Source: a phage
Length of the DNA: 64,000 nucleotides
Reading direction: 5' to 3' (one strand)
Sequence record: PZ674596.1
Under the pieces are notes generated by a model. The model was not told the DNA's origin. It worked only from the letters and a program-made list of their open reading frames with translations, and searched no databases. Of this stretch, positions 4,801 to 46,834 are shown in pieces. Position numbers and translations under genes: made by a program. How positions within the stretch are numbered: the first letter of the stretch is position 1; each line of letters starts with the position of its first letter.

Positions 4801-5323
4801 CGCACTCATGACACGGATGGCGGCTGAAATGGGCTTAGGTGATGAACTAATCCGCCCCAGCATTGGTATTAAGCCGAAAATCATGATCATTCTGGACAAT
4901 GCGAACGGCAATGATGCTCGAACCGGTTACTTCATGGAGAACGGATACGACGACTTTAAGGCCAAGCTATTGACGGCTGGAGATTTACGCATGGGCGATC
5001 TCTATGTCACAGGCGTTTGCAAGAAGGTTAAAGACAAAGAAAAAGACTACACCAAAGACGAGATCGGCCAGTTCACCGACTTTATACGTGAAGAGATCAA
5101 TCTGGTGCGTCCGACCTATGTGCTGACGTGTGGCAGCCGGGCAACGGCATTGTTTAACAACAAAAACAAGCCATCCGATTTGGTCGGCAGGAAGGAGTAT
5201 CTTCCAGACCTTGACGTTACTGTCTTTTACGGGTTTAACCCCAACATTCTTTACTTCAGACCTGAAGAGGGAGAACGACTAGAAGCGATATTAGCCGACG
5301 TAGCAGAAACTATTAAGACGTGA
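1805..5323 (+). CDS. dnaE: DNA polymerase III alpha-subunit-like replicative polymerase (DnaE family) with divergent C-terminal ~170 aa
   Basis: 1172 aa; conserved DnaE core GYFLMVRDL...GPGRGSSAGSLVAWCIGIT..DPI..GLLFERFINPER; RBS AAAGGTAAAAACAC before ATG. Confidence 0.9.
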   Translation: MKALMVRTDFSLGESALKAENAVKIAREAGYTAVISADSMNIASVIPLQRAAGDDMAVICGVKLNIVDDPTYEHRAKLAKESMRCMESLERGRNYSFTALIKNEKGYRDICELMTAANTREQFYFVPRLSLEQLVSTYAKGNIILLTSDIGSVFQRNDFAKIISTLITAGGKDNFYSVVYPHPTPFYDQINVRAMKVASALKIEPVAFYPAYYESIDDADIKDIAHMVTNNIKIDQPHRLRIPHQRDNAVNGRRHLLEALKAFSVRMDVPVTAAMASTTQDTIIDACTWRWHELPPALPKMADDEPATLMKLAVAGLRKRLTTKEFGYTPPASENRVYVERLKYEMDTLTRLGFCGYFLMVRDLMNHSRETGIPVGPGRGSSAGSLVAWCIGITNVDPIRHGLLFERFINPERLDLPDADLDFSQARRHEVIEYLNERYGEDYVAGIPNFTYLGAASALRDTARIYGVESADMAVSKELRNVEDDSLPLEELREQLASLDKYATKYPDAFNAACKLQSLMRGFGRHAAGMIVAGVPLTERTPVERRGDARCIAFDKRYCEAMGLIKLDVLGLATLDLLDSAKRYIKENTGEDINLDAISLEDRKVLDGFAAGYTQGVFQLESGPMRKLLKDLGGGIEPMSFKTVVATTALFRPGPIQSGMLDDYVSVAKGFMTPESLHPVLDELTAETNGVILYQEQTMNATRLLAGFTMAEADGVRKAIGKKDMEKMKSMGEKFIVQAQAGWIDVELEDGTTQRIHRAEHFKCEDGTLKTVEEALEYGAKLPINAVRVTASHPGLSEMKAKEIWTAFEKNGAYQFNKSHSVAYSLISYQSMWLKTHYPAEFFAAALTILGEDKHQGLVKDALTYGIRVLPPDVNVSSNRIEIRTLEDGSQVLYAPFSAVKGCSENGCQAIMRAREKVGGKFESLAQFEEAVEKRACNSRVRESLQKVGAFASIEPGSLPATDPERLRDQAELMGNLVIDAVKASRPFEMNPKRSAEINALMTRMAAEMGLGDELIRPSIGIKPKIMIILDNANGNDARTGYFMENGYDDFKAKLLTAGDLRMGDLYVTGVCKKVKDKEKDYTKDEIGQFTDFIREEINLVRPTYVLTCGSRATALFNNKNKPSDLVGRKEYLPDLDVTVFYGFNPNILYFRPEEGERLEAILADVAETIKT

Positions 5324-5448
5324 TCCCATAAACATGGCCTCTATGGCCATGTTTTCCCTTATCCCCTCATATCCCCTATCCTCGAACTCCTTGCCTTATC
5401 ATCACAATGATATAATCAATATAAGATGATAAGTAAAAAGGAAAGCAC

Positions 5449-5880
5449 ATGATCACCGATATTTACGAGAAAATAATGTCTGATCTCGAGTTTGACCGAG
5501 ACAATCTGGAGGAAGTCTGGCGTAGACAACCCCGCCTTTTAATGGAGTATGGCTCAAAACTCGCTCATGCAGAAAGAAGTGTCGCAGAGGCAAAACTTAA
5601 CCTTGAAGCTGTTGAAGCAAAGCTATACGACACAGAGCGTAAGAACTTGAGTATGAACGGCATTAAGTTCAACGAATCTGTACTGGACGCTAAGGTTAAA
5701 ACAAACCCACAGTATCTGTCTAAACGGCAGAAGTTGGATGAAGCACGGCACATCGCAGACATATACAAACATGCTGTCGCCGCCTTTTCGCATCGCCGAG
5801 ACATGATCGTTCAGGCGTCAAAGATGGCCATCGTTGAATTAGAGCGATTAGGCTCTGAACGCTTTATTACTCCCCGTTGA
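5449..5880 (+). CDS. hypothetical protein (possible UvsY-like recombination mediator)
   Basis: 143 aa helical/charged protein; start context AAAAGGAAAGCACATG; lies between polymerase and SSB/RecA-like genes; homology not verifiable here. Confidence 0.45.
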   Translation: MITDIYEKIMSDLEFDRDNLEEVWRRQPRLLMEYGSKLAHAERSVAEAKLNLEAVEAKLYDTERKNLSMNGIKFNESVLDAKVKTNPQYLSKRQKLDEARHIADIYKHAVAAFSHRRDMIVQASKMAIVELERLGSERFITPR

Positions 5881-5997
5881 TTTTTGATAGATAATAAGTA
5901 AGTACTGATCTATCATTTAACAGCTCGAAAGAGCCACGAATGAACGAAAGCCCAACGCGCATAGCGCCATCGGCCAAATCACAACAAGGAGAAACAC

Positions 5998-7026
5998 ATG
6001 TCTAAGACATTACTTGATTTGCTTAACAAAACTCGTGAAGACATTGCCGCCAAACGTGGTAACAACGTTGATCTGACTCGCTTAAAAGACGGCGTCAACT
6101 ATATTCGCATCTTCCCGAATAAAGACGACCCAAACGGTAAGTTCTTCCAGACTTTCGGTATGCACTACGTTAAGTATCAGAACGAGGAAGGTAAAGAAGC
6201 AACCAACGCTTATATTTGTGAGCAACATACTCACGGTCGCGCTTGTCAGCTATGCGAAATGGTGATGGAAGGTCGCGCTCGTCACAAGGGTAACAAAGCA
6301 ATGGAAGAACGCATCGGTCAAATGCGTGCCACTCCTCGCTACCTGGTCAACGGCATTCTTTCTGCTCGTGAGGATTTCGCAGATGCTGAGAAATGCCAGT
6401 TAATCGAGCTGCCGTCTACTGTATTCGATGATATCTGCAAAGCAATCACCGAAGACATCGCTGATGATATCGGCAATCCACTGAGCAAAGAGGAAGGCTA
6501 CGCATTCCTGATTAAACGTACTGGCTCTGGTCGCGATACCAAATATGACGTCTCGCCTAAGCGTAAAGTCTACAAAGGCGATATCGAAGATAAATTCTGG
6601 AATACCCAGCATGATCTGATCGCATACGCAAATCAGGCTGATGAAACTCGTCTTCTGTCGACAGTTCGCACTATGGGTCGTCTGATTGGCATCGCTGCAC
6701 CAACTGCCGCAGCATCTGCACCAGCAATTTCCTCAACCGCGAAAACATCGGCTGCGGCACTACCTGGATTTGGCTCTGTCACTGGTCATACGGAGGGTGC
6801 GACTGCTGTAGCTACCGCTCATACCCCAGCTTCTGAACCAACCAGTCTGGTTGATGAAGAAATCCTCCGTGCCGTTGAAACTGAATTTAAACCAGAAGCA
6901 AGTCCCGCTGCCGTTGCAGTATCAGTCAAAGAGTCTGAAGCAGTCGCAGCGACATCTGTAGCAGCCGCATCTGCGACGGAAGATGAAGGTCTGGATGACC
7001 TACTGAGAGAGCTGGACTCTCTGTAA
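5998..7026 (+). CDS. ssDNA-binding protein, T4 gp32-like
   Basis: 342 aa; His/Cys zinc-site-like cluster CEQHTHGRACQLC; Ala/Ser/Thr-rich linker; acidic C-terminal tail DEGLDDLLRELDSL. Confidence 0.65.
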   Translation: MSKTLLDLLNKTREDIAAKRGNNVDLTRLKDGVNYIRIFPNKDDPNGKFFQTFGMHYVKYQNEEGKEATNAYICEQHTHGRACQLCEMVMEGRARHKGNKAMEERIGQMRATPRYLVNGILSAREDFADAEKCQLIELPSTVFDDICKAITEDIADDIGNPLSKEEGYAFLIKRTGSGRDTKYDVSPKRKVYKGDIEDKFWNTQHDLIAYANQADETRLLSTVRTMGRLIGIAAPTAAASAPAISSTAKTSAAALPGFGSVTGHTEGATAVATAHTPASEPTSLVDEEILRAVETEFKPEASPAAVAVSVKESEAVAATSVAAASATEDEGLDDLLRELDSL

Positions 7027-7043
7027 TCCCATTACGTGACCAG

Positions 7044-7072
7044 TAAGGCGTCTACGGACGCCTTACTTTTTG
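7044..7072 (+). terminator. Rho-independent terminator after SSB gene
   Basis: Hairpin TAAGGCGTC-tac-GGACGCCTTA followed by CTTTTT. Confidence 0.6.
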
Positions 7073-7086
7073 GAAGGAATGTACCG

Positions 7087-8031
7087 GTGAATTATCTCTT
7101 CGTAGATGGCAATAGCCTGGGTTATTACCACCAACAATCTGACAAATTGCACAACGGCGAAATGGAAGTACAGGCTGCTTTCGGCTTTGTTAAGAACGTC
7201 CGTCGTTATGCCTCCATCCTCCATGCCCGACCTATGATTCTTTGGGATGGATTTAGTGACAAGCGCCGCGACTTTTACCCGGACTACAAAGCAAATCGCG
7301 ACGACGATCCTGATATGAAAAAGATGAAGGAAGGCTTTGCTATCCAGAAGCCATACATCCTCAAAATGATGACCGCGCTTGGAGTTACCCAACTCATTGC
7401 AAAAGATGCAGAAGCGGATGATCTGGCCGGGCTGCTGGTAGCCAGCATTGCACCGCAGCCAATCGTTGAACACATCTATCTGTTAACAGGCGATAGCGAC
7501 TGGCTTCAGTTAGTTCGCGAAAACGTAAGCTGGGTAAGCCTGCGCGAAGACGCCAAAAACAAGCAGGTTAATTTTGAGCAATTTGCGGAACTGACAGGAT
7601 TCGCTACTCCTCGCGCATTTTTGGAAGCAAAAGCATTACAAGGCGATAACTCGGACAACATTAGCGGTGTTGGTGGCATTGGTGCTGGCGGTGCGAAAGA
7701 GCTGCTGCATGAATGGGGAAGTGTCGCAACGATGGTACGCGGCATCAACGACGGCTCAATCGTGGTTGACAAAGGACGCCATAAGACCGCCTTCAACAAA
7801 CTAGCGAAGAATGCCTTCAACGAGAAAACAGGCTGTCGAATGCTCGAAGCGTTCAAGAGAAACATCACGCTAATGAACCTGATTGAGACGAAGTTTCCGC
7901 CTACCGAAATCGAAACAATCAAAGGCAATCGTGACGTGAAAGCATTCGAGCAACTGTGCTACGAGCTGAATTTCCGTTCGTTCCTTGAAGACCTTGAAGT
8001 GTTTGTTCTTCCATTCGAAAGGTATTGCTAA
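7087..8031 (+). CDS. 5'-3' exonuclease / flap endonuclease (T4 RNase H / T5 D15-like)
   Basis: FVDGNSLGYY N-terminal nuclease motif and H3TH motif GDNSDNISGVGGIGAGGAKELL; start placed at in-frame GTG 7087 after GGAAGGA, because table start 7036 lies inside the upstream terminator hairpin. Confidence 0.8.
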   Translation: MNYLFVDGNSLGYYHQQSDKLHNGEMEVQAAFGFVKNVRRYASILHARPMILWDGFSDKRRDFYPDYKANRDDDPDMKKMKEGFAIQKPYILKMMTALGVTQLIAKDAEADDLAGLLVASIAPQPIVEHIYLLTGDSDWLQLVRENVSWVSLREDAKNKQVNFEQFAELTGFATPRAFLEAKALQGDNSDNISGVGGIGAGGAKELLHEWGSVATMVRGINDGSIVVDKGRHKTAFNKLAKNAFNEKTGCRMLEAFKRNITLMNLIETKFPPTEIETIKGNRDVKAFEQLCYELNFRSFLEDLEVFVLPFERYC

Positions 8032-29922: not shown

Positions 29923-30516
29923 ATGATTGCAGCCGAAAAAATCAAACAGCGAAAGCGCGACAACTCTCTTCGTGACCTCTGGAGAACACCTGACTGGCTG
30001 TTTTCTGCCATTCAACGTTATCTTGGAGTGACATTTGATGTTGACGTTGCCTGCAACAAGGACAATGCAAAGCTGCCTAATTTCATAGGCGTTGAGCGTG
30101 ATGCTTTGAAATCTGAATGGGGACAGCCAGGTACAATTGCCTTCCTCAATCCACCCTACTCCAAAATCTACCCCTGGATTGATGCGGCTATACGTGAGCA
30201 GGCTCGTGGAGTTACAACAGTGATGCTAATTCCTCAATCCCTAGATACAAAGTGGTATGAGCGTGCAACAGAGTGTGCGAATGAGACGATTATTCTGTCT
30301 GGTGGCCGCGTAGCGTTTGTCGAGCCTGACGTAAATCTGGGTCAGGTAGAAGTAAACATCAACCCAGGTGGCAGTATGCTCGTTGTTTTTCGAGGATTCT
30401 GTCAGGACGCTGGGCACTCTATAAGCAAGATCCCTTTGGACGTCATGAAAAGTCTGGGAGGGTATGATCCTGCGAATGTGATCAGGAAAAAAAGACCATC
30501 AAAGAAGGCTGCTTAG
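29923..30516 (+). CDS. phage-type N6-adenine DNA methyltransferase (Dam-like)
   Basis: 197 aa; catalytic motif FLNPPYS; small size typical of phage Dam family. Confidence 0.75.
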   Translation: MIAAEKIKQRKRDNSLRDLWRTPDWLFSAIQRYLGVTFDVDVACNKDNAKLPNFIGVERDALKSEWGQPGTIAFLNPPYSKIYPWIDAAIREQARGVTTVMLIPQSLDTKWYERATECANETIILSGGRVAFVEPDVNLGQVEVNINPGGSMLVVFRGFCQDAGHSISKIPLDVMKSLGGYDPANVIRKKRPSKKAA

Positions 30517-33039: not shown

Positions 33040-33465
33040 ATGTTAGGTTTCTTCAAAAAGAAAACTCGTAAAGCTGTTATCGAAGTCAAAAAAATGGAGA
33101 ACCGTGATGCGGTTGAGGCCACCGTGTGGGGCGCGTACATGATCTCCTATGCCGACGGCACATGTGACGCAAAAGAAATTGCCATTCTTGAGAAGACAAT
33201 TGCAGCTCTGCCTGCGTTTTCTCCGTTTGCTGGTGAAATTGCCCAAATGAGCGCCAATATCCGTGCTCGTTACGAAGCGTCCCCTCGTTCTGCTAATGCA
33301 CAGGCTATTCGTGAGCTGTCTGATATTGCGGGTACTCCAGAGGCGGTCGATGTTCTGTGTCTGTGCCTTGATATTGCCGATCAGGACGGCATTGGTGAAC
33401 AAGAAGAGCAGGCACTGAAAAAGATCGCCCAGGCGCTTCAGTTGTCACTGGATGCTTATCTCTAA
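33040..33465 (+). CDS. TerB-like (tellurite-resistance-type) domain protein
   Basis: 141 aa; size and helical acidic pattern reminiscent of TerB; start context AAAAGGAAAGCACATG. Confidence 0.4.
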   Translation: MLGFFKKKTRKAVIEVKKMENRDAVEATVWGAYMISYADGTCDAKEIAILEKTIAALPAFSPFAGEIAQMSANIRARYEASPRSANAQAIRELSDIAGTPEAVDVLCLCLDIADQDGIGEQEEQALKKIAQALQLSLDAYL

Positions 33466-33623
33466 TGCTTGAGAGATTCCGGCTTGTGATCGTCATTGCT
33501 CTTCTGGTGATGGCGGTGTTGGTGGATTTTACGGGAAAGATGATGTCTGTCATTTCTGATGGCGTCCTCATTGGTCTGGCGATCTACTTCGCTTATCCGT
33601 TAGTTCGTAAAGCAAAGTGTTAA
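33465..33623 (+). CDS. small membrane protein (52 aa, not in ORF table)
   Basis: ATG overlaps upstream stop (TAATG); translation MLERFRLVIVIALLVMAVLVDFTGKMMSVISDGVLIGLAIYFAYPLVRKAKC; followed by a terminator hairpin. Confidence 0.4.
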   Translation: MLERFRLVIVIALLVMAVLVDFTGKMMSVISDGVLIGLAIYFAYPLVRKAKC

Positions 33624-33626
33624 TGA

Positions 33627-33653
33627 CAAGGGCCAAATGGCCCTTGTGTTTCG
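33627..33653 (+). terminator. Rho-independent terminator
   Basis: CAAGGGCC-aaat-GGCCCTTG followed by TGTTTCGTT. Confidence 0.6.
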
Positions 33654-33762
33654 TTGACCGAAATAGAGAGTTTGCACCTTTACGTTTAGCTTGCTCCCCT
33701 TTTATGCCACATCACAATAAAGCCAATAAGAAAACAACTTGTTTAAGCATTAGGAAAAACAC

Positions 33763-34329
33763 ATGTGCAAGAAATGCAAAGCGATAGCTGATGAACAAAA
33801 CGCCTTATTCGAAGAAATGGATGCTAATGAACTGGTCAAAATGTTAGCCATTCTTCGAGGAATAGAAGACGTTTCCATATTTGAGAGACTGTTTACAATA
33901 CTTAATTTTAATTCCACCTTTGAAGAGCCAACTCAGATTGTAGCTTTGGCACACCATTTCGGTGTTCATTACCTTGCTGAAAAAGAGAGAGCTGATAAGT
34001 TGCAAGCGACTTTGGATATGGTGAGCGAGACTCAAGAAACTGATGACGGTAACAAAAGTGAGACGATTATTGCCAGCAAAGATCGTGAAATTGCCGGGCT
34101 TAAATCCTCTCTAACGATGTTGATGTCTGCAATCAACCTTATGTCTTCTAAAGCAGGTTCTAAAATGCCATCACTAAACAGCGACGATCCGATGGCCGTT
34201 CGCCAGCTTTTAGGTGCAATGGCCGACCAGCTCGACGACACAAAGAGTCGCCTTGAAGACATGATGCGGGAGCTCACGCATCGCCATGACTTGAATAAGC
34301 AGCCGCACAAAACGCAATACGCACTCTAA
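33763..34329 (+). CDS. hypothetical protein
   Basis: 188 aa; start context AGGAAAAACACATG. Confidence 0.5.
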   Translation: MCKKCKAIADEQNALFEEMDANELVKMLAILRGIEDVSIFERLFTILNFNSTFEEPTQIVALAHHFGVHYLAEKERADKLQATLDMVSETQETDDGNKSETIIASKDREIAGLKSSLTMLMSAINLMSSKAGSKMPSLNSDDPMAVRQLLGAMADQLDDTKSRLEDMMRELTHRHDLNKQPHKTQYAL

Positions 34330-34346
34330 TACAGCACCAGTCGACA

Positions 34347-34369
34347 GGGGGCGACAGCCCCCATTTTTA
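34347..34369 (+). terminator. Rho-independent terminator
   Basis: GGGGGC-gaca-GCCCCC followed by ATTTTTA. Confidence 0.65.
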
Positions 34370-34470
34370 CGCCTTAAATCTGCTGTAACGCCTATGAATG
34401 CAGCTTTTATGCCTTTTCAAGTTTGCGATAATTACACCAATCAGAAAACAAATTATTTAATGGTGTAATT

Positions 34471-36156
34471 ATGAATACAGCCCTTTCCATCATCGACGAT
34501 GCCAGCTCAAACACGGCTATCGACTATCGTCAGGAAATGAATGTCATCCACGAAATCGTGGCCGAGTGCGAGAAAGAGATCGCCTTCATGTATCAGGTAC
34601 ACGACTTCGTTTATGGCGACGAACGCCACAACATGATTAATCGCCTGCTGAGACTAAACCATCGACCAGATGAAGATCGCTCGCGTTTAAATCGAGGTTG
34701 GTTGGATAAAGTCGATCTGGAATGGGTGAAACAGAATATTTGGGCCGAGTACTGGAGGAAGGTCACGGACATGACTAACGTTTTGCTGATCATGCCAGCT
34801 TCCCGTCGAGATGAGTGGCGCGAGCAGTTTATAGAGGGCAAACAGGAAGTCATCAAAACTGACAGAACCGGCTACCAGATGAAGGTTAAAGAGTTCGTTG
34901 GTGTACCGGAGTTCAAAGCAGAAACGGTCATACCCACGATGCTTAATTTGCTGAATGACAGGCACAAATATCTCTCTGAGCGCGTGTATGGCTTGTTTAA
35001 GGCGCTGAGTCCTGCGCACAAGACAAATAAGACAAACGGTTTCAGCGAGCGGCTGATAATCGCTGACTGCATTTCTGATTTCTGGCGGGACAGCGTTAGC
35101 GTGAACTATCGCAAAGAGGACTACATCGACGATCTGCGTGTCTTGCTTCATTTCTTCGCGCACAAAGAATTTATTACCATCAACCGCACTGCTGAGGTGC
35201 TATCAGCTGCGTATCGGGCAAACGACTGCCAGACCGGTGACTGGATGAACGTCGATGGAAATCTGATGCGCGTGAAGATGTTCAAGAACGGCAACGTTCA
35301 CTTTGAAATACATCCTGACGTGGCCTGGAAGTTGAATGAGGTGCTGGCTTACAGTATGCCTGCTGCAATCCCCGCGCCATGTCGCACCGCGCCAAAAACA
35401 CGGGCACCAAAGCAGTTCGGGTTAATCCAGAAGACGATCTCCGTGCCGGTTCGCACTGCGCTTCGTGACGGGCGATTGAGCAAAGACAAAGGCGTATGGT
35501 ACTTCTCTGATTCAGCTCTCCAGAAGTCGCAGGTGGAAGAGCTTGAGCGCACACTGAGCTTCATTGGCGGCGTGCAGGAGAAAAAACACTGGCAGTTCCC
35601 GTATGACATCGTCCATACGCTAAATACGATTGTGGCTACCGGATTAATACCGGATACAAAATCACACCAGTTCTACCCTACCCCACGCTTGATTGCTGAG
35701 TACGTTGCCAGAGCCACTGAATTGAAGCCTGGTGAGAAGCTGCTGGAGCCTCAAGCCGGACGTGGGGATCTTCTGGCCTATATTAACGCCGATCTGGAAG
35801 ATGTTACCTGCATAGAAATCGCACCTCTCTTCGCTGATATCCTGCGTGGAAAAGGGTATACGAACACGATTTGCTGCGACTTCATAAAGTGGTCTGAGGA
35901 CAACGCAGGTTATCAGTTCGACAAAATCGTTATGAACCCGCCGTACTCGCTTGGTCGTCATAGAGAGCACACTCTGGCTGCGCTTGGGCATCTGAAAGTC
36001 GGCGGGCGTCTTGTAGCAGTATTGCCGGGCACTGCGCCAATACTGGACTGGATGACGATGGATAATTACGTTTATGCCAGAGGGAAGTCGTTTACCAACG
36101 AGTTTGAAGACACAGGGATCACAGTCAGCGTATACGTTTTCAAACGCGTTAAATGA
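34471..36156 (+). CDS. large protein with C-terminal N6-adenine DNA methyltransferase domain
   Basis: 561 aa; SAM-binding-like LEPQAGRGDL then catalytic VMNPPYS near C-terminus; ~400 aa N-terminal region of unknown function. Confidence 0.6.
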   Translation: MNTALSIIDDASSNTAIDYRQEMNVIHEIVAECEKEIAFMYQVHDFVYGDERHNMINRLLRLNHRPDEDRSRLNRGWLDKVDLEWVKQNIWAEYWRKVTDMTNVLLIMPASRRDEWREQFIEGKQEVIKTDRTGYQMKVKEFVGVPEFKAETVIPTMLNLLNDRHKYLSERVYGLFKALSPAHKTNKTNGFSERLIIADCISDFWRDSVSVNYRKEDYIDDLRVLLHFFAHKEFITINRTAEVLSAAYRANDCQTGDWMNVDGNLMRVKMFKNGNVHFEIHPDVAWKLNEVLAYSMPAAIPAPCRTAPKTRAPKQFGLIQKTISVPVRTALRDGRLSKDKGVWYFSDSALQKSQVEELERTLSFIGGVQEKKHWQFPYDIVHTLNTIVATGLIPDTKSHQFYPTPRLIAEYVARATELKPGEKLLEPQAGRGDLLAYINADLEDVTCIEIAPLFADILRGKGYTNTICCDFIKWSEDNAGYQFDKIVMNPPYSLGRHREHTLAALGHLKVGGRLVAVLPGTAPILDWMTMDNYVYARGKSFTNEFEDTGITVSVYVFKRVK

Positions 36157-36217: not shown

Positions 36218-36922
36218 ATGAACAACCTCCAGTTAGAGCATTTTAACGTCACAGGCCATTCTGATTTTCCTTTCAAGTTTACATTGAAAGGTTATGCAGA
36301 GGATGCGGTAGGCCAGATCATTATTGATAAAGGCATCGTTAAGTTTGAGGGGAATTTTGATGAATCCGCGAAAACATTCATAGACTTCGTTGCCAAACGT
36401 TGGAGCGAGCAATGGAAAGACCTGGAAAAGCGCGCTAATGAGTTTGATCGGTTCATGGATGCAATGGATACAGCAAAAGAGGCTCTTGCTGCCGGGACTC
36501 CGTTAGATCTGGAGTCACTTTTCAACGGCGAAGTGGCCTCTGCGATGTTCGCCACCATGTTCGCGGGTGAGTTCGTCCGCAGCGGTGCCAAAAACTACCT
36601 TGAGCTGGATTACAACGTCCCTGCAATTGGCGACTTCGTCGTTACCATCCAACGCAAAGAAGGTAAGACGCCAGGTGAACGCGTCGCAGAGCTTGAGGCC
36701 GTTGTGGATCAGCGTAACGGAGAGTGTGACCGTTTGATCAACGAGCTTCATGCACTTCGGGAAGAAAGAATATGTGCGGGTAGCAATACACGTAATGCTG
36801 CGGATATCTACTTCCAGTTAGTCGAGGAATGCCAGATTCCACCAGGTGGCTCTCTTGTCGATTACGTCAGACATTTAATGGCGGAAGTTAACTCCAGCCA
36901 TAAAGATGGTGAGGTGCGCTGA
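36218..36922 (+). CDS. hypothetical protein (shares C-terminal module with 39406..40098)
   Basis: 234 aa; C-terminal NTRNAADIYFQLVEECQIPPGGSLVDYV also present in a second protein. Confidence 0.5.
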   Translation: MNNLQLEHFNVTGHSDFPFKFTLKGYAEDAVGQIIIDKGIVKFEGNFDESAKTFIDFVAKRWSEQWKDLEKRANEFDRFMDAMDTAKEALAAGTPLDLESLFNGEVASAMFATMFAGEFVRSGAKNYLELDYNVPAIGDFVVTIQRKEGKTPGERVAELEAVVDQRNGECDRLINELHALREERICAGSNTRNAADIYFQLVEECQIPPGGSLVDYVRHLMAEVNSSHKDGEVR

Positions 36923-37421: not shown

Positions 37422-38063
37422 ATGTCTAGTATTTCCGAAGCTCATATGTTCGCCGCTGGCGCTCATGGTGGCGTTGGTCAGAAAAGAAAATATACCGGCG
37501 AAGACTACATCAACCACCCGGTTGCGGTCCGAGAGATTGTTGCATTGCATGACGGAACCGTGGAGATGCAAATCGCGGCGCTTCTGCATGATGTGGTCGA
37601 AGACACCCATGTAACCATAGAGATGGTTCGTGATCACTTCGGTGAGCGCGTAGCTGAAATGGTTCAGGCTCTGACCAACATTGCAAGGCCAGAAGACGGC
37701 AATCGAATACAGCGTTTCATCATCAATGTCCGGGAGCTGGAGCAAAATCTCGACATGCAGACGCGCATGATCAAGCTGGCTGACCTGCTCGACAATACCT
37801 CTTCTATCGTGAGTCGCGATCCCGAGTTTTCAGCTGTCTACCTCGCAGAGAAAGAACTGATGCTGGACGTACTCTTTCACGGCAAAGAGATTGGTGCCAA
37901 CGCTGATGTTGTCGAGTACATGGAGAGGATAGGTATAGAACACCCGTTGCTATTAAGCGCAATGGCGAAAGTCACTGAAGGTATTGCGCTTCTGAAACCG
38001 GTACACATCAAACGTTATGAAAAACACAAATCGCTGATCTGGAGCGCGTGGGAGGCTGCATGA
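37422..38063 (+). CDS. SpoT/RelA-type HD-domain (p)ppGpp hydrolase-like protein (small alarmone hydrolase)
   Basis: 213 aa; aligns to RelA/SpoT hydrolase domain: EDYINHPVAV..IAALLHDVVEDT..FGERVAEMV..IKLADLLDN. Confidence 0.7.
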   Translation: MSSISEAHMFAAGAHGGVGQKRKYTGEDYINHPVAVREIVALHDGTVEMQIAALLHDVVEDTHVTIEMVRDHFGERVAEMVQALTNIARPEDGNRIQRFIINVRELEQNLDMQTRMIKLADLLDNTSSIVSRDPEFSAVYLAEKELMLDVLFHGKEIGANADVVEYMERIGIEHPLLLSAMAKVTEGIALLKPVHIKRYEKHKSLIWSAWEAA

Positions 38064-39405: not shown

Positions 39406-40098
39406 ATGACCAACATTAACTATCAGGCACTGCGTGAAAAGGCAGAAAAAGCAACGTGGGGAGACTGGGACTCATATAAACCACACCGTGGCGCACGTGG
39501 TTATAAGGTCCGACTAAGTGGTCAGGCCATTGCGCAACACGTTCTGAAAAACAACGCTGAATTTATTGCTGCCTTTAATCCAAAGGTTGCTTTGGCATTA
39601 CTGGATGAACTGGAAAGAAACCAGCAATACATCAAACGCCGTGACCAGGAGAACGAGGAAATTGCGCTAACGGTAGGGAGGCTTCGCGTTGAGCTGGAAG
39701 GCAAAGACAGCAAAATAGCCAATCTTACCGCCGAACGCGATGCTCTTCGTGAAGGTGAGATGGGCGACGCTAGGCATAGCAACACACGGGCCGCAGCTGA
39801 TATCTACTTCCAACTGGTCGAGGAGTGCGAAATTCCTGCTGGCGGTTCTCTGGTCGAGTACGTTGACGATATGCGCGAGAAGTTGGAAGCCGCAGAGAAG
39901 CGCATTGCAGAGTTAGAAAGTGGTTCTCAGGCACAAAAGTTAGTTGAAGCAATCATTGTTGCGATAGAAAACGAACAGGAAAGGCTTTTTGATGAAGATT
40001 ACCTAATGGATTCGAAAGAATGCATTGACGTAATTCGTGAAGAAGTAAAGCGATGGAATGATTCCCGTGCCGCTGGCATTCGCATCAAAGGAGAGTGA
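39406..40098 (+). CDS. hypothetical protein (paralogous C-terminal module)
   Basis: 230 aa; NTRAAADIYFQLVEECEIPAGGSLVEYV matches C-terminus of 36218..36922. Confidence 0.5.
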   Translation: MTNINYQALREKAEKATWGDWDSYKPHRGARGYKVRLSGQAIAQHVLKNNAEFIAAFNPKVALALLDELERNQQYIKRRDQENEEIALTVGRLRVELEGKDSKIANLTAERDALREGEMGDARHSNTRAAADIYFQLVEECEIPAGGSLVEYVDDMREKLEAAEKRIAELESGSQAQKLVEAIIVAIENEQERLFDEDYLMDSKECIDVIREEVKRWNDSRAAGIRIKGE

Positions 40099-43115: not shown

Positions 43116-43505
43116 ATGGGCTTCCCTTCTCCTGCGGCGGATTATGCTGAGAGCCGTATTTCTCTTGATCAGCAGATAATTAGACATCCTTCAGCGACCT
43201 ACTTCATGAGAGCGGCTGACAGCCATCATCGTGAGGGAATATTGCAGGGCGCATTGCTGGTGGTCGATTCCTCACTTACCCCGGTTGATGGTTCTCTGCT
43301 TGTATGCGCTCTGGATGGGGAATATCGCGTAAAAAGATACCGGAAGTATCCACGTCAGCATCTGGAGGATTTAAGAACTGGTAAGAAGGAAGCATTGCCA
43401 AAGGATGACGATGGATGCACGGGCAGCAATGCCGTGTTTGGTGTGATCACTCACATTATCAACGACGCAAGAAGTGGCGAGTTTGATGATTGTCCCGTGA
43501 TGTAG
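43116..43505 (+). CDS. humD: UmuD'-like protein lacking the N-terminal arm (HumD-like)
   Basis: 129 aa beginning MGFPSPAADY, i.e. at the UmuD Cys24-Gly25 processing site; Ser and Lys of the catalytic dyad alignable (ADSH; VKR); P1 HumD has the same form. Confidence 0.75.
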   Translation: MGFPSPAADYAESRISLDQQIIRHPSATYFMRAADSHHREGILQGALLVVDSSLTPVDGSLLVCALDGEYRVKRYRKYPRQHLEDLRTGKKEALPKDDDGCTGSNAVFGVITHIINDARSGEFDDCPVM

Positions 43506-43542: not shown

Positions 43543-44643
43543 TCACACTGCGCGGAATGCGATTTCGCCAGGTATTACTTCACCTTGCCAATACATTTGG
43601 GCAGCAACGCGATCTGCGAGGTCACGATAAATAGCTGTAAATTCGCTATCTGGACGACTAATAACGGTTGGTGTTCCGTTATCCAGATCTTCACGAAGAG
43701 AGATATGAAGTGGCATTTGGCCTAACAACTGCGTGTTGTATTTCTCGGCCAGTTTCTGTGCGCCACCGGTGCCAAAAATTGGCTCGTGATGACCGCAGTT
43801 ACTGCAAATATGCACACTCATGTTTTCAACGATACCCAGTACCGGCACTTCGACTTTTTCGAACATCACAATGCCTTTCTTCGCATCGATCAGCGCGATG
43901 TCTTGCGGCGTAGTTACCACAACCGCACCAGTTACAGGAATGTTCTGCGCCAGCGTCAACTGAATATCACCAGTGCCCGGCGGCATATCGAGAACAAGAT
44001 AGTCCAGATCAGGCCACAATGTTTCCTGCAACATCTGCATTAACGCCTTGCTCGCCATCGGTCCACGCCACACCATTGCATTGTCGTCGGTGACCAGATA
44101 ACCAATAGAGTTGGTTGCCAGGCCATGAGACATGATAGGTGCCATGTGAGTACCGTCAGGTGAGGTTGGACGTTGGTTTTCCGCGCCCAGCATGGTTGGA
44201 ATTGATGGACCATAGATATCGGCATCCAAAATACCAACTTTCGCACCTTCAGCAGCCAACGCCAGTGCCAGGTTTACCGCCGTGGAGGATTTACCCACGC
44301 CGCCCTTGCCTGAGCTGACGGCGATAATGTTCTTAACGCCATTAATGCCTGGTTGGTTTTTGACGCGCTTAAGCGTGGCAATGTTGTACGACAGCTTCCA
44401 GTCAATAGCCTTTGCGCCAGTGATACGGAGCAGATCACCACTACATTGCTCTTTCAGGTCTTCAAAAGGCTTATTCCACACGAAAGGCATGATTAGTTCG
44501 ACATGCAGTGTGTCATCCATCAACGCAACATGGTGTAACGCTTTAAGCGTAGTCAGGTTGTGTTTCAGGGTTGGGTGCTGAAAATTAGCCAGCGTACCGG
44601 CTACCATTGCTCTCAGGGCATCCGGCGATTTGGACTCGCTCAT
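43543..44643 (-). CDS. mrp: Fe-S cluster carrier ATPase Mrp/ApbC (host-type)
   Basis: 366 aa; deviant Walker A SGKGGVGKSS; matches my recollection of enterobacterial Mrp. Confidence 0.9.
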   Translation of the reverse strand: MSESKSPDALRAMVAGTLANFQHPTLKHNLTTLKALHHVALMDDTLHVELIMPFVWNKPFEDLKEQCSGDLLRITGAKAIDWKLSYNIATLKRVKNQPGINGVKNIIAVSSGKGGVGKSSTAVNLALALAAEGAKVGILDADIYGPSIPTMLGAENQRPTSPDGTHMAPIMSHGLATNSIGYLVTDDNAMVWRGPMASKALMQMLQETLWPDLDYLVLDMPPGTGDIQLTLAQNIPVTGAVVVTTPQDIALIDAKKGIVMFEKVEVPVLGIVENMSVHICSNCGHHEPIFGTGGAQKLAEKYNTQLLGQMPLHISLREDLDNGTPTVISRPDSEFTAIYRDLADRVAAQMYWQGEVIPGEIAFRAV

Positions 44644-44800
44644 CCCGTCTCCTTTATTTTAATTTGCGCAATTGTCGCCTTGTAGTGTACTCCAGCTACG
44701 ACATTTAATCATTTATGAGAAATGCTGTTATCACATGGCAGACATAAGGCCATTTTGTTACTATCAAGCCCCTTTTCACTACAAAGAAGTAATGCCTACT

Positions 44801-46834
44801 ATGACCCAAGTCGCGAAGAAAATTCTGGTGACGTGCGCGCTGCCGTACGCTAACGGCTCAATCCACCTCGGCCATATGCTGGAGCACATCCAGGCTGATG
44901 TCTGGGTTCGTTACCAGCGAATGCGCGGCCACGAGGTTAATTTCATCTGTGCCGACGATGCCCACGGTACGCCGATCATGTTGAAAGCACAGCAGCTTGG
45001 TATCACACCGGAGCAGATGATTGGCGAAATGAGTCAGGAACATCAGACTGATTTCGCAGGCTTTAACATCAGCTATGACAACTATCACTCGACGCACAGC
45101 GAAGAGAACCGTCAGTTGTCCGAGCTTATCTATACTCGCCTGAAAGAGAACGGTTTTATTAAAAACCGCACCATCTCTCAGCTGTACGACCCGGAAAAAG
45201 GCATGTTCCTGCCGGACCGTTTTGTAAAAGGCACATGCCCGAAATGTAAAGCGCCGGATCAATACGGCGATAACTGTGAAGTCTGCGGCGCTACTTACAG
45301 CCCGACTGAACTGATCGAGCCGAAATCGGTAGTTTCTGGTGCTACGCCGGTAATGCGTGATTCCGAACACTTCTTCTTTGATCTGCCTTCTTTCAGCGAA
45401 ATGTTGCAGGCATGGACCCGCAGCGGTGCGTTGCAGGAGCAGGTGGCAAACAAAATGCAGGAGTGGTTTGAATCTGGCCTGCAACAGTGGGATATCTCCC
45501 GCGATGCGCCGTACTTCGGTTTTGAAATTCCGAACGCACCGGGCAAATATTTCTACGTCTGGCTGGACGCGCCGATTGGCTACATGGGTTCCTTCAAGAA
45601 TCTGTGCGACAAACGCGGCGACACTACCAGCTTCGACGAATACTGGAAGAAAGACTCCACCGCCGAGCTGTACCACTTCATCGGTAAAGATATCGTTTAC
45701 TTCCACAGCCTGTTCTGGCCTGCCATGCTGGAAGGCAGCAACTTCCGCAAGCCGACCAACCTGTTTGTTCACGGCTATGTGACGGTGAACGGCGCGAAGA
45801 TGTCCAAGTCTCGCGGCACCTTTATTAAAGCCAGCACCTGGCTGAATCATTTTGACGCCGACAGCCTGCGTTACTACTACACTGCGAAACTCTCTTCGCG
45901 CATTGATGATATCGATCTCAATCTGGAAGATTTCGTTCAGCGTGTGAATGCCGATATCGTTAACAAAGTGGTTAACCTGGCCTCCCGTAATGCAGGCTTT
46001 ATCAACAAGCGTTTTGACGGCGTGCTGGCAAGCGAACTGGCTGACCCGCAACTGTACAAAACCTTTACTGATGCCGCTGAAGTGATTGGCGAAGCATGGG
46101 AAAGCCGCGAATTTGGCAAAGCTATCCGTGAAATCATGGCACTGGCTGACCTGGCTAACCGCTATGTTGATGAACAGGCTCCGTGGGTGGTGGCGAAGCA
46201 GGAAGGACGCGATGCCGATCTGCAGGCGATTTGCTCTATGGGCATTAACCTGTTCCGCGTGCTGATGACGTACCTGAAACCGGTACTGCCGAAACTGACT
46301 GAACGTGCAGAAGCATTCCTGAATACAGAACTGACCTGGGATGGTATCCAGCAACCGCTGCTGGGCCATAAAGTGAATCCGTTCAAGGCACTGTATAACC
46401 GTATCGATATGAAACAGGTGGAAGCACTGGTGGAAGCATCCAAAGAAGAAGTGAAAGCCACAGCTGCACCGGTAACTGGCCCACTGGCTGACGACCCGAT
46501 TCAGGAAACCATCACCTTTGACGACTTCGCCAAAGTTGACCTGCGTGTGGCGCTGATTGAAAACGCGGAGTTTGTCGAAGGTTCTGACAAACTGCTTCGC
46601 CTGACGCTGGATCTCGGTGGTGAAAAGCGTAATGTCTTCTCAGGCATCCGTTCCGCTTATCCAGATCCACAGGCACTGATTGGTCGTCACACCATTATGG
46701 TGGCTAACCTGGCACCACGTAAAATGCGCTTCGGTATCTCTGAAGGCATGGTGATGGCTGCTGGCCCCGGCGGGAAAGATATCTTCCTGTTAAGCCCGGA
46801 TGCTGGTGCTAAACCTGGCCACCAGGTTAAGTAA
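44801..46834 (+). CDS. metG: methionyl-tRNA synthetase (host-type)
   Basis: 677 aa from ATG 44801 (table ORF has spurious 43-aa extension); [16 protein letters not shown], Zn knuckle CPKCK..CEVCG; near-identical to enterobacterial MetG as I recall it. Confidence 0.95.

Follow-up and report, generated by a model that had tools for sequence, protein, structure and literature searches.

A DUF4942–methyltransferase fusion protein of a phage-plasmid: a probable orphan adenine methyltransferase with a conserved N-terminal module

The gene at positions 34471–36156 (+) of the phage sequence record PZ674596.1 (64,000 nt; "the window" hereafter means this whole stretch) encodes a protein of 561 amino acids (aa), which consists of an N-terminal DUF4942 region and a C-terminal methyltransferase domain with intact catalytic motifs. 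In our judgement the protein is probably an orphan gamma-type N6-adenine DNA methyltransferase that guards the DNA of its element from restriction, with DUF4942 as an accessory module and not as the specificity determinant. The protein is made up of three parts: a conserved and autonomous DUF4942 module (approximately residues 1–303), a basic variable linker (304–395), and a minimal gamma-type catalytic domain (396–561).

The open reading frame (ORF) showed 99.8% nucleotide identity with genes of non-mobilizable E. coli plasmids of approximately 110 kb, for example pLAU-OXA1, and was matched by 562 plasmid records; the protein showed 99% identity with its counterpart in "Escherichia phage CMS-2020a". 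These plasmid and phage matches indicated that the window is an SSU5/pHCM2-type phage-plasmid of E. coli. The NCBI product name of the near-identical genes is "DUF4942 domain-containing protein", and the PHROG 6263 profile ("DNA methyltransferase") was matched over its full length, residues 1–395 corresponding to profile positions 1–388 (E 3e-205) and residues 396–561 to positions 389–548 (E 2e-85). By these comparisons the gene is no new object: it belongs, as a near-identical copy, to a family that is catalogued and has been sequenced widely. The features of the gene are as follows.

34471..36156 (+), whole ORF, fusion of DUF4942 and methyltransferase, 561 aa (NCBI name; PHROG 6263)
34471..34716 (+), residues 1–82, variable helical hairpin (helices 20–48 and 52–62), with the first 17 residues disordered
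34717..35379 (+), residues 83–303, DUF4942 core, the most conserved segment (Pfam, hhalign)
35017..35028 (+), H183-K-T-N186 loop, of low model confidence (predicted local distance difference test score, pLDDT, below 50)
35380..35655 (+), residues 304–395, basic variable linker with a small alpha/beta subdomain (325–390)
35656..36153 (+), residues 396–561, minimal, complete S-adenosylmethionine (SAM)-dependent amino-methyltransferase Rossmann domain with gamma-type motif order
35668–35685 (+), motif X, QFYPTP, residues 400–405
35743–35769 (+), motif I, LEPQAGRGD, residues 425–433
35812–35817 (+), motif II, IE (E449), inside CIEI (35809–35820)
35878–35883 (+), motif III, DF (D470-F471)
35935–35946 (+), motif IV, NPPY, residues 489–492

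Domain architecture of the 561-aa protein

Every methyltransferase motif of the protein fell within residues 396–561, in agreement with a first-pass annotation made from the DNA sequence, which had confined the catalytic motifs to the C-terminal part. Motifs X, I, II, III, and IV were all kept in 27 of 27 aligned relatives with 33–92% identity. Motif I lay upstream of motif IV, which is the gamma order, and the domain had the seven-stranded Rossmann-like fold of class I methyltransferases. The QFYPTP segment aligned to the "ETPPEV" segment of TaqI; gamma-class DNA methyltransferases typically have F-Y-P-T-P ahead of motif I. The last Rossmann strand (551–559) closed the protein, so that the C-terminal target-recognition domain (TRD) of the gamma class was absent. 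The motif order is gamma-type, but the architecture is not canonical gamma-class: M.TaqI, CamA, M.BseCI, and the Type I HsdM have a C-terminal TRD or a separate HsdS subunit, whereas the 561-aa protein ends with the Rossmann fold, and the 395-aa region before its catalytic domain showed no similarity to gamma-class TRDs or to the N-terminal domain of HsdM. In hidden Markov model (HMM) searches, the domain matched the DNA methyltransferase models mad2 of PADLOC (1.5e-15) and MTase_II (2e-10). Methyltransferase modules of MADS Mad2 and of giant phage proteins (phrog_15406, 11358, 10691, and 9133) matched residues ~394–523 with E 1e-15 to 1e-40; their flanking regions differ from those of the 561-aa protein, and none of them has DUF4942.

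The N-terminal region had been described in the first-pass annotation as uncharacterised and possibly novel. This wording did not survive the domain search, which placed the region in the catalogued Pfam family DUF4942 (PF13708): residues 89–295 matched profile positions 3–187 of 190 (E 4e-21) with a score of 74.4–76 bits, against a gathering threshold of 25 bits. The part of the description that stood is that of a methyltransferase with a large, functionally unstudied N-terminal module. The residues invariant in both the fused proteins and the standalone DUF4942 proteins described below were W95, M108, W116, P146, S180, T185, N186, D221, L222, G274, H277, P282, N289, and P301, of which S180, T185, N186, D221, H277, and N289 form the polar subset, and both forms have the signature LS-x-x-(H/Y)-K-T-N. 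H-x-T-N was kept in 134 of 134 representatives of the fused form and appears as Y-K-T-N in the standalone forms; from the structural model, the H-K-T-N segment may be a flexible loop that contacts a ligand or DNA. The core closed at AIPAP (299–303), which is also the end of the standalone proteins and the recombination junction described below.

The linker (304–395) had an isoelectric point (pI) of 9.7 and a net charge of +4.9. When cassettes are exchanged, it moves together with the methyltransferase half, and phrog_9133 showed a weak co-occurrence of the linker and the methyltransferase module (E 0.007). By inference, we regard the linker as a candidate DNA-contact or specificity element. 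The DUF4942 core was near-neutral, with a pI of ~7.2, and the standalone forms had pI values of 5.6–9.2.

When all PDB chains were searched with the full-length sequence and with profiles of the N-terminal region and of the standalone form, DUF4942 had no match; the only matches were marginal ones of TaqI type, all on the methyltransferase domain. No counterpart of the DUF4942 fold was found among solved structures, and the N-terminal region had no structural similarity to any known TRD. Three other identities of DUF4942 were considered and rejected. A degenerate duplicate of the methyltransferase, as old labels imply, was rejected at an hhalign probability of 0.1% against the methyltransferase domain; a PD-(D/E)XK nuclease in "DG...RVK...E-I-H" was rejected because K269 and E279 are not conserved across the family and no nuclease fold matched; and a DNA mimic of the Ocr/ArdA type, strongly acidic with a pI of about 4, was rejected on charge.

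Fused and standalone forms of DUF4942

An exhaustive HMMER search with residues 1–395 alone as the query retrieved 614 clusters at 50% identity. Among the best 150 of these, nearly all proteins were 510–580 aa long with the region placed alike, and of the 134 full-length fused-form representatives retrieved in this way, 131 had a C-terminal (N/S)PP(Y/F/W). Together with the invariance of H-x-T-N, these counts indicated that the fused DUF4942–methyltransferase architecture is a fixed and widespread family. Relatives at ~35% identity were found in the early regions of lambdoid prophages, after CI/Cro/YdaS-like and O/P-like genes, where they directly adjoined other orphan methyltransferases (N6_N4_Mtase, C5 DNA_methylase) and no endonuclease was recognisable next to them. 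Further relatives were present in phage genomes of Aeromonas, Pseudomonas, and Marinomonas, annotated as methylases. By analogy, this early-region setting is the classic one of phage orphan methyltransferases with a self-protective role.

A tblastn search with residues 89–395 matched 4684 plasmids, 3593 of which are conjugative. The match in IncHI2 plasmids was the same fusion, of 563 aa, and that in IncL/M (pOXA-48-type) and IncI plasmids was a protein of 282–286 aa with PF13708 only (E 1.4e-50). Among the matches listed, all 120 short-form homologues were of ~285 aa with PF13708 only. When residues 86–285 of the short form were compared with residues 83–303 of the window protein by hhalign, the probability was 99.6% (E 1.3e-23), and another standalone comparison gave 98.9%. 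Like the core of the window protein, the standalone proteins have the DDL motif, H277, P282, N289, and P301 in addition to the common signature; they start with a segment of ~85 aa that is loosely alignable to residues 1–82, and, like the fused form, they are encoded by mobile elements. They differ in their length, in lacking the methyltransferase domain, in the changes H183 to Y, H281 to R, and R164 to K, and in their location in leading regions adjoining oriT. The standalone gene lay there with ssb, antirestriction genes (ArdA), PsiB/PsiA, and PndC, and in an IncI plasmid it directly adjoined mobC/nikA-oriT. No methyltransferase was annotated near the standalone plasmid genes in the contexts examined. 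In a published survey, standalone DUF4942 proteins (YdiA/YgfB) are listed as large families that are uncharacterised and enriched in the leading regions of plasmids, where their gene is typically the first ORF to enter the recipient (PMC11541004, supplementary table). The "methyltransferase" labels carried by YdiA/YgfB appear to stem from a former domain name and find no support in their sequences.

In the pOXA-48-type IncL/M plasmids, the standalone gene was located ~0.9 kb downstream of a DndB-like gene with a DGQHR domain (PF14072, E 1e-57; 4578–5861 in L005 and 2791–4850 in L006), which is split by IS1 in pMBR_OXA-48. DndB-family proteins are associated with DNA-modification systems, and this neighbour is therefore a second hint tying DUF4942 neighbourhoods to DNA modification.

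Conservation of the segments was expressed as mean column entropy across the 27 aligned relatives. The DUF4942 core (89–300) was the most conserved segment, with a mean entropy of 1.34, followed by the methyltransferase domain with 1.50; the first 88 residues and the linker (301–395) were variable, with values of ~2.1, and the most variable patches were residues 321–360 and 521–540. Two clean mosaics were found among the relatives. The protein P0044 showed 95–96% identity with the window protein over residues 101–300 and 47–58% over 301–561, and over the latter region it showed 99–100% identity with the Klebsiella-type protein P0080. Since the mosaic junction coincided with the end of the standalone proteins, comparison of the sequences indicated that the protein is built of a DUF4942 module (1–303) and a cassette of linker and methyltransferase (304–561), and that lineages exchange the cassette but retain DUF4942 with the backbone. 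Neither the link between the fused form and standalone YdiA nor the cassette exchange at residue ~300 was found stated in the literature searched.

Proposed role and alternative explanations

In the explanation that we favour, we infer that DNA is the substrate and that the enzyme would methylate the element's own DNA during replication or establishment, which would allow the methylated DNA to escape host restriction enzymes after infection or transfer. DUF4942 would engage DNA or a conserved DNA-processing partner and so bring the catalytic domain to the DNA of the element as this enters or replicates; it is probably not the reader of the target sequence. Any sequence selectivity would reside in the exchangeable C-terminal cassette, which contains the two most variable patches. 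The gene is solitary: no restriction endonuclease gene was recognisable within ~9 kb on each side by annotation and by Pfam scans of 10 neighbours, and no adjacent cognate endonuclease was seen in the contexts of the relatives.

The same self-methylation role is presumed for orphan methyltransferases of phages and prophages, which lie in early or replication modules without a recognisable endonuclease. One example is the Dam-type enzyme encoded at 29923–30516 of the window, which differs from the 561-aa protein in being a single domain of 197 aa (PF05869) and of another methyltransferase class. A functional analogy, and no more than that, is also offered by M.EcoGIX and M.BceJIII, plasmid-encoded and single-strand-specific methyltransferases of leading regions that act early on entering DNA and protect it against restriction (Fomenkov et al. 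2020, PMC7736820), and that appear to depend on the host partner PolI for targeting (PMC7736820). M.EcoGIX was rejected as a member of the family; both enzymes are small, of the beta class, with DPPY and no DUF4942, and have no homology with the 561-aa protein beyond the generic fold.

Several points weigh against the favoured explanation. The best single structural match of the catalytic domain was METTL5, an rRNA N6-methyladenosine (m6A) methyltransferase, and there were weak HMM matches to KsgA/Erm, so that an RNA substrate is possible. A catalytic domain without its own TRD needs DNA recognition elsewhere, which keeps alive a TRD role for DUF4942. DUF4942 is not clearly basic, unlike many DNA binders, and the positioning role proposed for it is based on conservation and context. 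Several neighbour genes have no recognisable function and may include a novel nuclease partner, which limits the assignment as an orphan. The searchable literature held no methylation data for any family member, no experimentally characterised member, and no functional data on DUF4942, YdiA/YgfB, the SSU5/pHCM2 methyltransferases, or phage-plasmid methylomes.

Among the other explanations, the one that we hold as a tentative, minority view gives DUF4942 a mechanism of its own. It would be an autonomous module of a previously unseen fold, either an enzyme acting through Ser180, Thr185-Asn186, Asp221, and His277 or a protein that subverts a conserved DNA-processing factor of the host. Mobile elements would deploy the module first on entry, alone as YdiA or fused to an exchangeable methyltransferase cassette, and it would provide a new mechanism of counter-defence or establishment instead of target recognition.

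A second explanation, which had also been proposed in the first-pass annotation, is that DUF4942 is a TRD presenting the target adenine to the TRD-less catalytic domain, and that the protein is thus a permuted gamma-type methyltransferase with its TRD first. The Rossmann fold that ends the protein leaves no room for a C-terminal TRD, DUF4942 is coupled to the methyltransferase domain in 131 of the 134 fused-form representatives, and the conserved flexible H-x-T-N loop could touch DNA. However, TRDs normally vary with specificity, yet DUF4942 is the most conserved segment; the part that recombines between lineages is the methyltransferase half and not DUF4942; and DUF4942 occurs on thousands of plasmids without a fused or nearby annotated methyltransferase. 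No standard TRD of a known orphan methyltransferase was matched by the region, DUF4942 being found instead, and no known TRD resembled it in structure. The proposal was thus weakened, and we consider it unlikely.

Slightly more doubtful is the explanation that DUF4942 is an independent effector of counter-defence or establishment, either an inhibitor of host defence or an enzyme with Ser180, Asp221, His277, and Asn186, and that the fusion unites two activities against restriction in a single early protein. The polar residue set invariant in both architectures, the fold without a counterpart among solved structures, and the standing of the standalone forms among the largest uncharacterised leading-region families, typically as the first ORF behind oriT and in the company of ArdA, PsiB, and ssb, are in its favour. 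On the other hand, no defence or anti-defence model was matched, the proteins, with pI values of 5.6–9.2, lack the acidity of the DNA mimics Ocr and ArdA, and an arms-race inhibitor directed at variable restriction enzymes would hardly be expected to be so strongly conserved across Proteobacteria.

Modification of a host component other than DNA, namely of RNA (rRNA or tRNA, as m6A or N2-methylguanosine) or of protein glutamine, is improbable in spite of the METTL5 and KsgA/Erm matches. Identity was 25–27% to the DNA enzymes TaqI and CamA versus 15–16%, a comparison counted against an RNA or protein substrate; the significant HMM matches were to DNA methyltransferase models; the F-Y-P-T-P segment is of the type usual in gamma-class DNA enzymes; and in the early regions of phages the relatives form clusters with further DNA methyltransferases. 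A Type IIG-like fusion of restriction and modification, with an N-terminal nuclease, is very improbable: the layout of an N-terminal non-methyltransferase domain, a helical region, and a gamma-type methyltransferase is superficially MmeI-like, and PADLOC gave a weak match to REase_MTase_IIG (E 0.0012) in the methyltransferase region only, but the N-terminal model matched no nuclease fold, K269 and E279 of the PD-(D/E)XK-like motif vary across the family, the C-terminal TRD of the Type IIG/IIL (MmeI-like) enzymes is absent, and in phage early regions the gene lies with orphan methyltransferases.

Of the uncharacterised leading-region genes of conjugative resistance plasmids (pOXA-48-type IncL/M, IncI, IncHI2), those for YdiA/YgfB belong to the most abundant. 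The fusion physically ties DUF4942 to an adenine methyltransferase and thereby gives a lead for the whole family, toward DNA methylation or restriction evasion during establishment, and the cassette exchange may serve as a natural experiment by which specificity could be located. If DUF4942 is a targeting or counter-defence module, it would bear on the establishment of blaCTX-M/blaOXA-48 plasmids and phage-plasmids in new hosts. Should the protein prove to be no more than an orphan methyltransferase whose DNA-binding domain is unusual, the finding is an ordinary one.

Genetic neighbourhood and upstream sequence

The methyltransferase gene belongs to a run of genes for replication and nucleotide metabolism, all on one strand. 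Its neighbours include genes for a 3'-5' exonuclease, the Dam-type methyltransferase, RNase HI, and an HD-domain protein, and nrdAB, thyA (thymidylate synthase), and the gene for dihydrofolate reductase lie further upstream. The Dam-type N6-adenine methyltransferase (29923–30516, +) matched PF05869 with E 2.9e-38 and has its own NPPY. By sequence, the phage-plasmid appears to carry at least two adenine methyltransferases, ~4 kb apart. Scans of the whole window gave no tRNA and no Rfam family.

Two features were found in the sequence just upstream of the start codon.

34347..34362 (+), terminator-like GC hairpin followed by a T-run, 3' of the gene for a 188-aa protein (pattern scan only; the count was not above that in shuffled sequences)
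34428..34472 (+), perfect 12-bp inverted repeat ATAATTACACCA / TGGTGTAATTAT with a 21-nt spacer

The terminator-like hairpin suggests that transcription of the methyltransferase gene may start separately, within the 108-nt spacer. The second arm of the inverted repeat spans a Shine–Dalgarno-like GGTG (34462–34465) and the first two bases of the ATG, and as RNA the repeat would form a hairpin of -12.4 kcal/mol (z = -3.1). The repeat is perfect in the window lineage only; relatives and diverged plasmids keep an ACACCA/TGGTG core (5–6 bp), and no compensatory changes (covariation) were found among the relatives. It is possibly a translational hairpin or an operator; the evidence is weak, and the repeat stands outside the main claim.

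Downstream of the methyltransferase gene, the HD-domain protein (37422–38063, +; 213 aa) matched HD_4 (PF13328, E 1.2e-18), which we take to be the HD hydrolase type of RelA/SpoT-like (p)ppGpp hydrolases; from this match, an alarmone hydrolase on the phage-plasmid is possible. The unannotated genes at 36218–36922 (+) and 39406–40098 (+), encoding ~230 aa each, have a common block with 45% identity (E 4e-16), the centre of which reads "...NTR(N/A)AADIYFQLVEEC(Q/E)IP(P/A)GGSLV(D/E)YV". This similarity indicated that they are paralogous modules, the first of which lies directly 3' of the methyltransferase gene. Based on gene order and ORF length in comparison with the annotation of near-identical plasmids, 43116–43505 (+), 43543–44643 (-), and 44672–46834 (+) correspond to an S24 peptidase, an ApbC-like iron-sulfur carrier, and methionyl-tRNA synthetase (metG), respectively; ApbC and MetG are housekeeping-type cargo on the phage-plasmid.

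A TerB-domain protein of 141 aa (33040–33465, +; PF05099, E 2.4e-07) is encoded ~1 kb upstream of the methyltransferase gene, and its counterpart in related plasmids is labelled "tellurite/colicin resistance protein". In pLAU-OXA1, the closest plasmid, an ISEcp1-blaCTX-M-15 unit is located between a DUF3927 gene and the 188-aa gene directly upstream of the methyltransferase gene, and this insertion is absent from the window (~33620–33765, compared with 5313–7706 of pLAU-OXA1); the spot is therefore a resistance-gene insertion site in this lineage.
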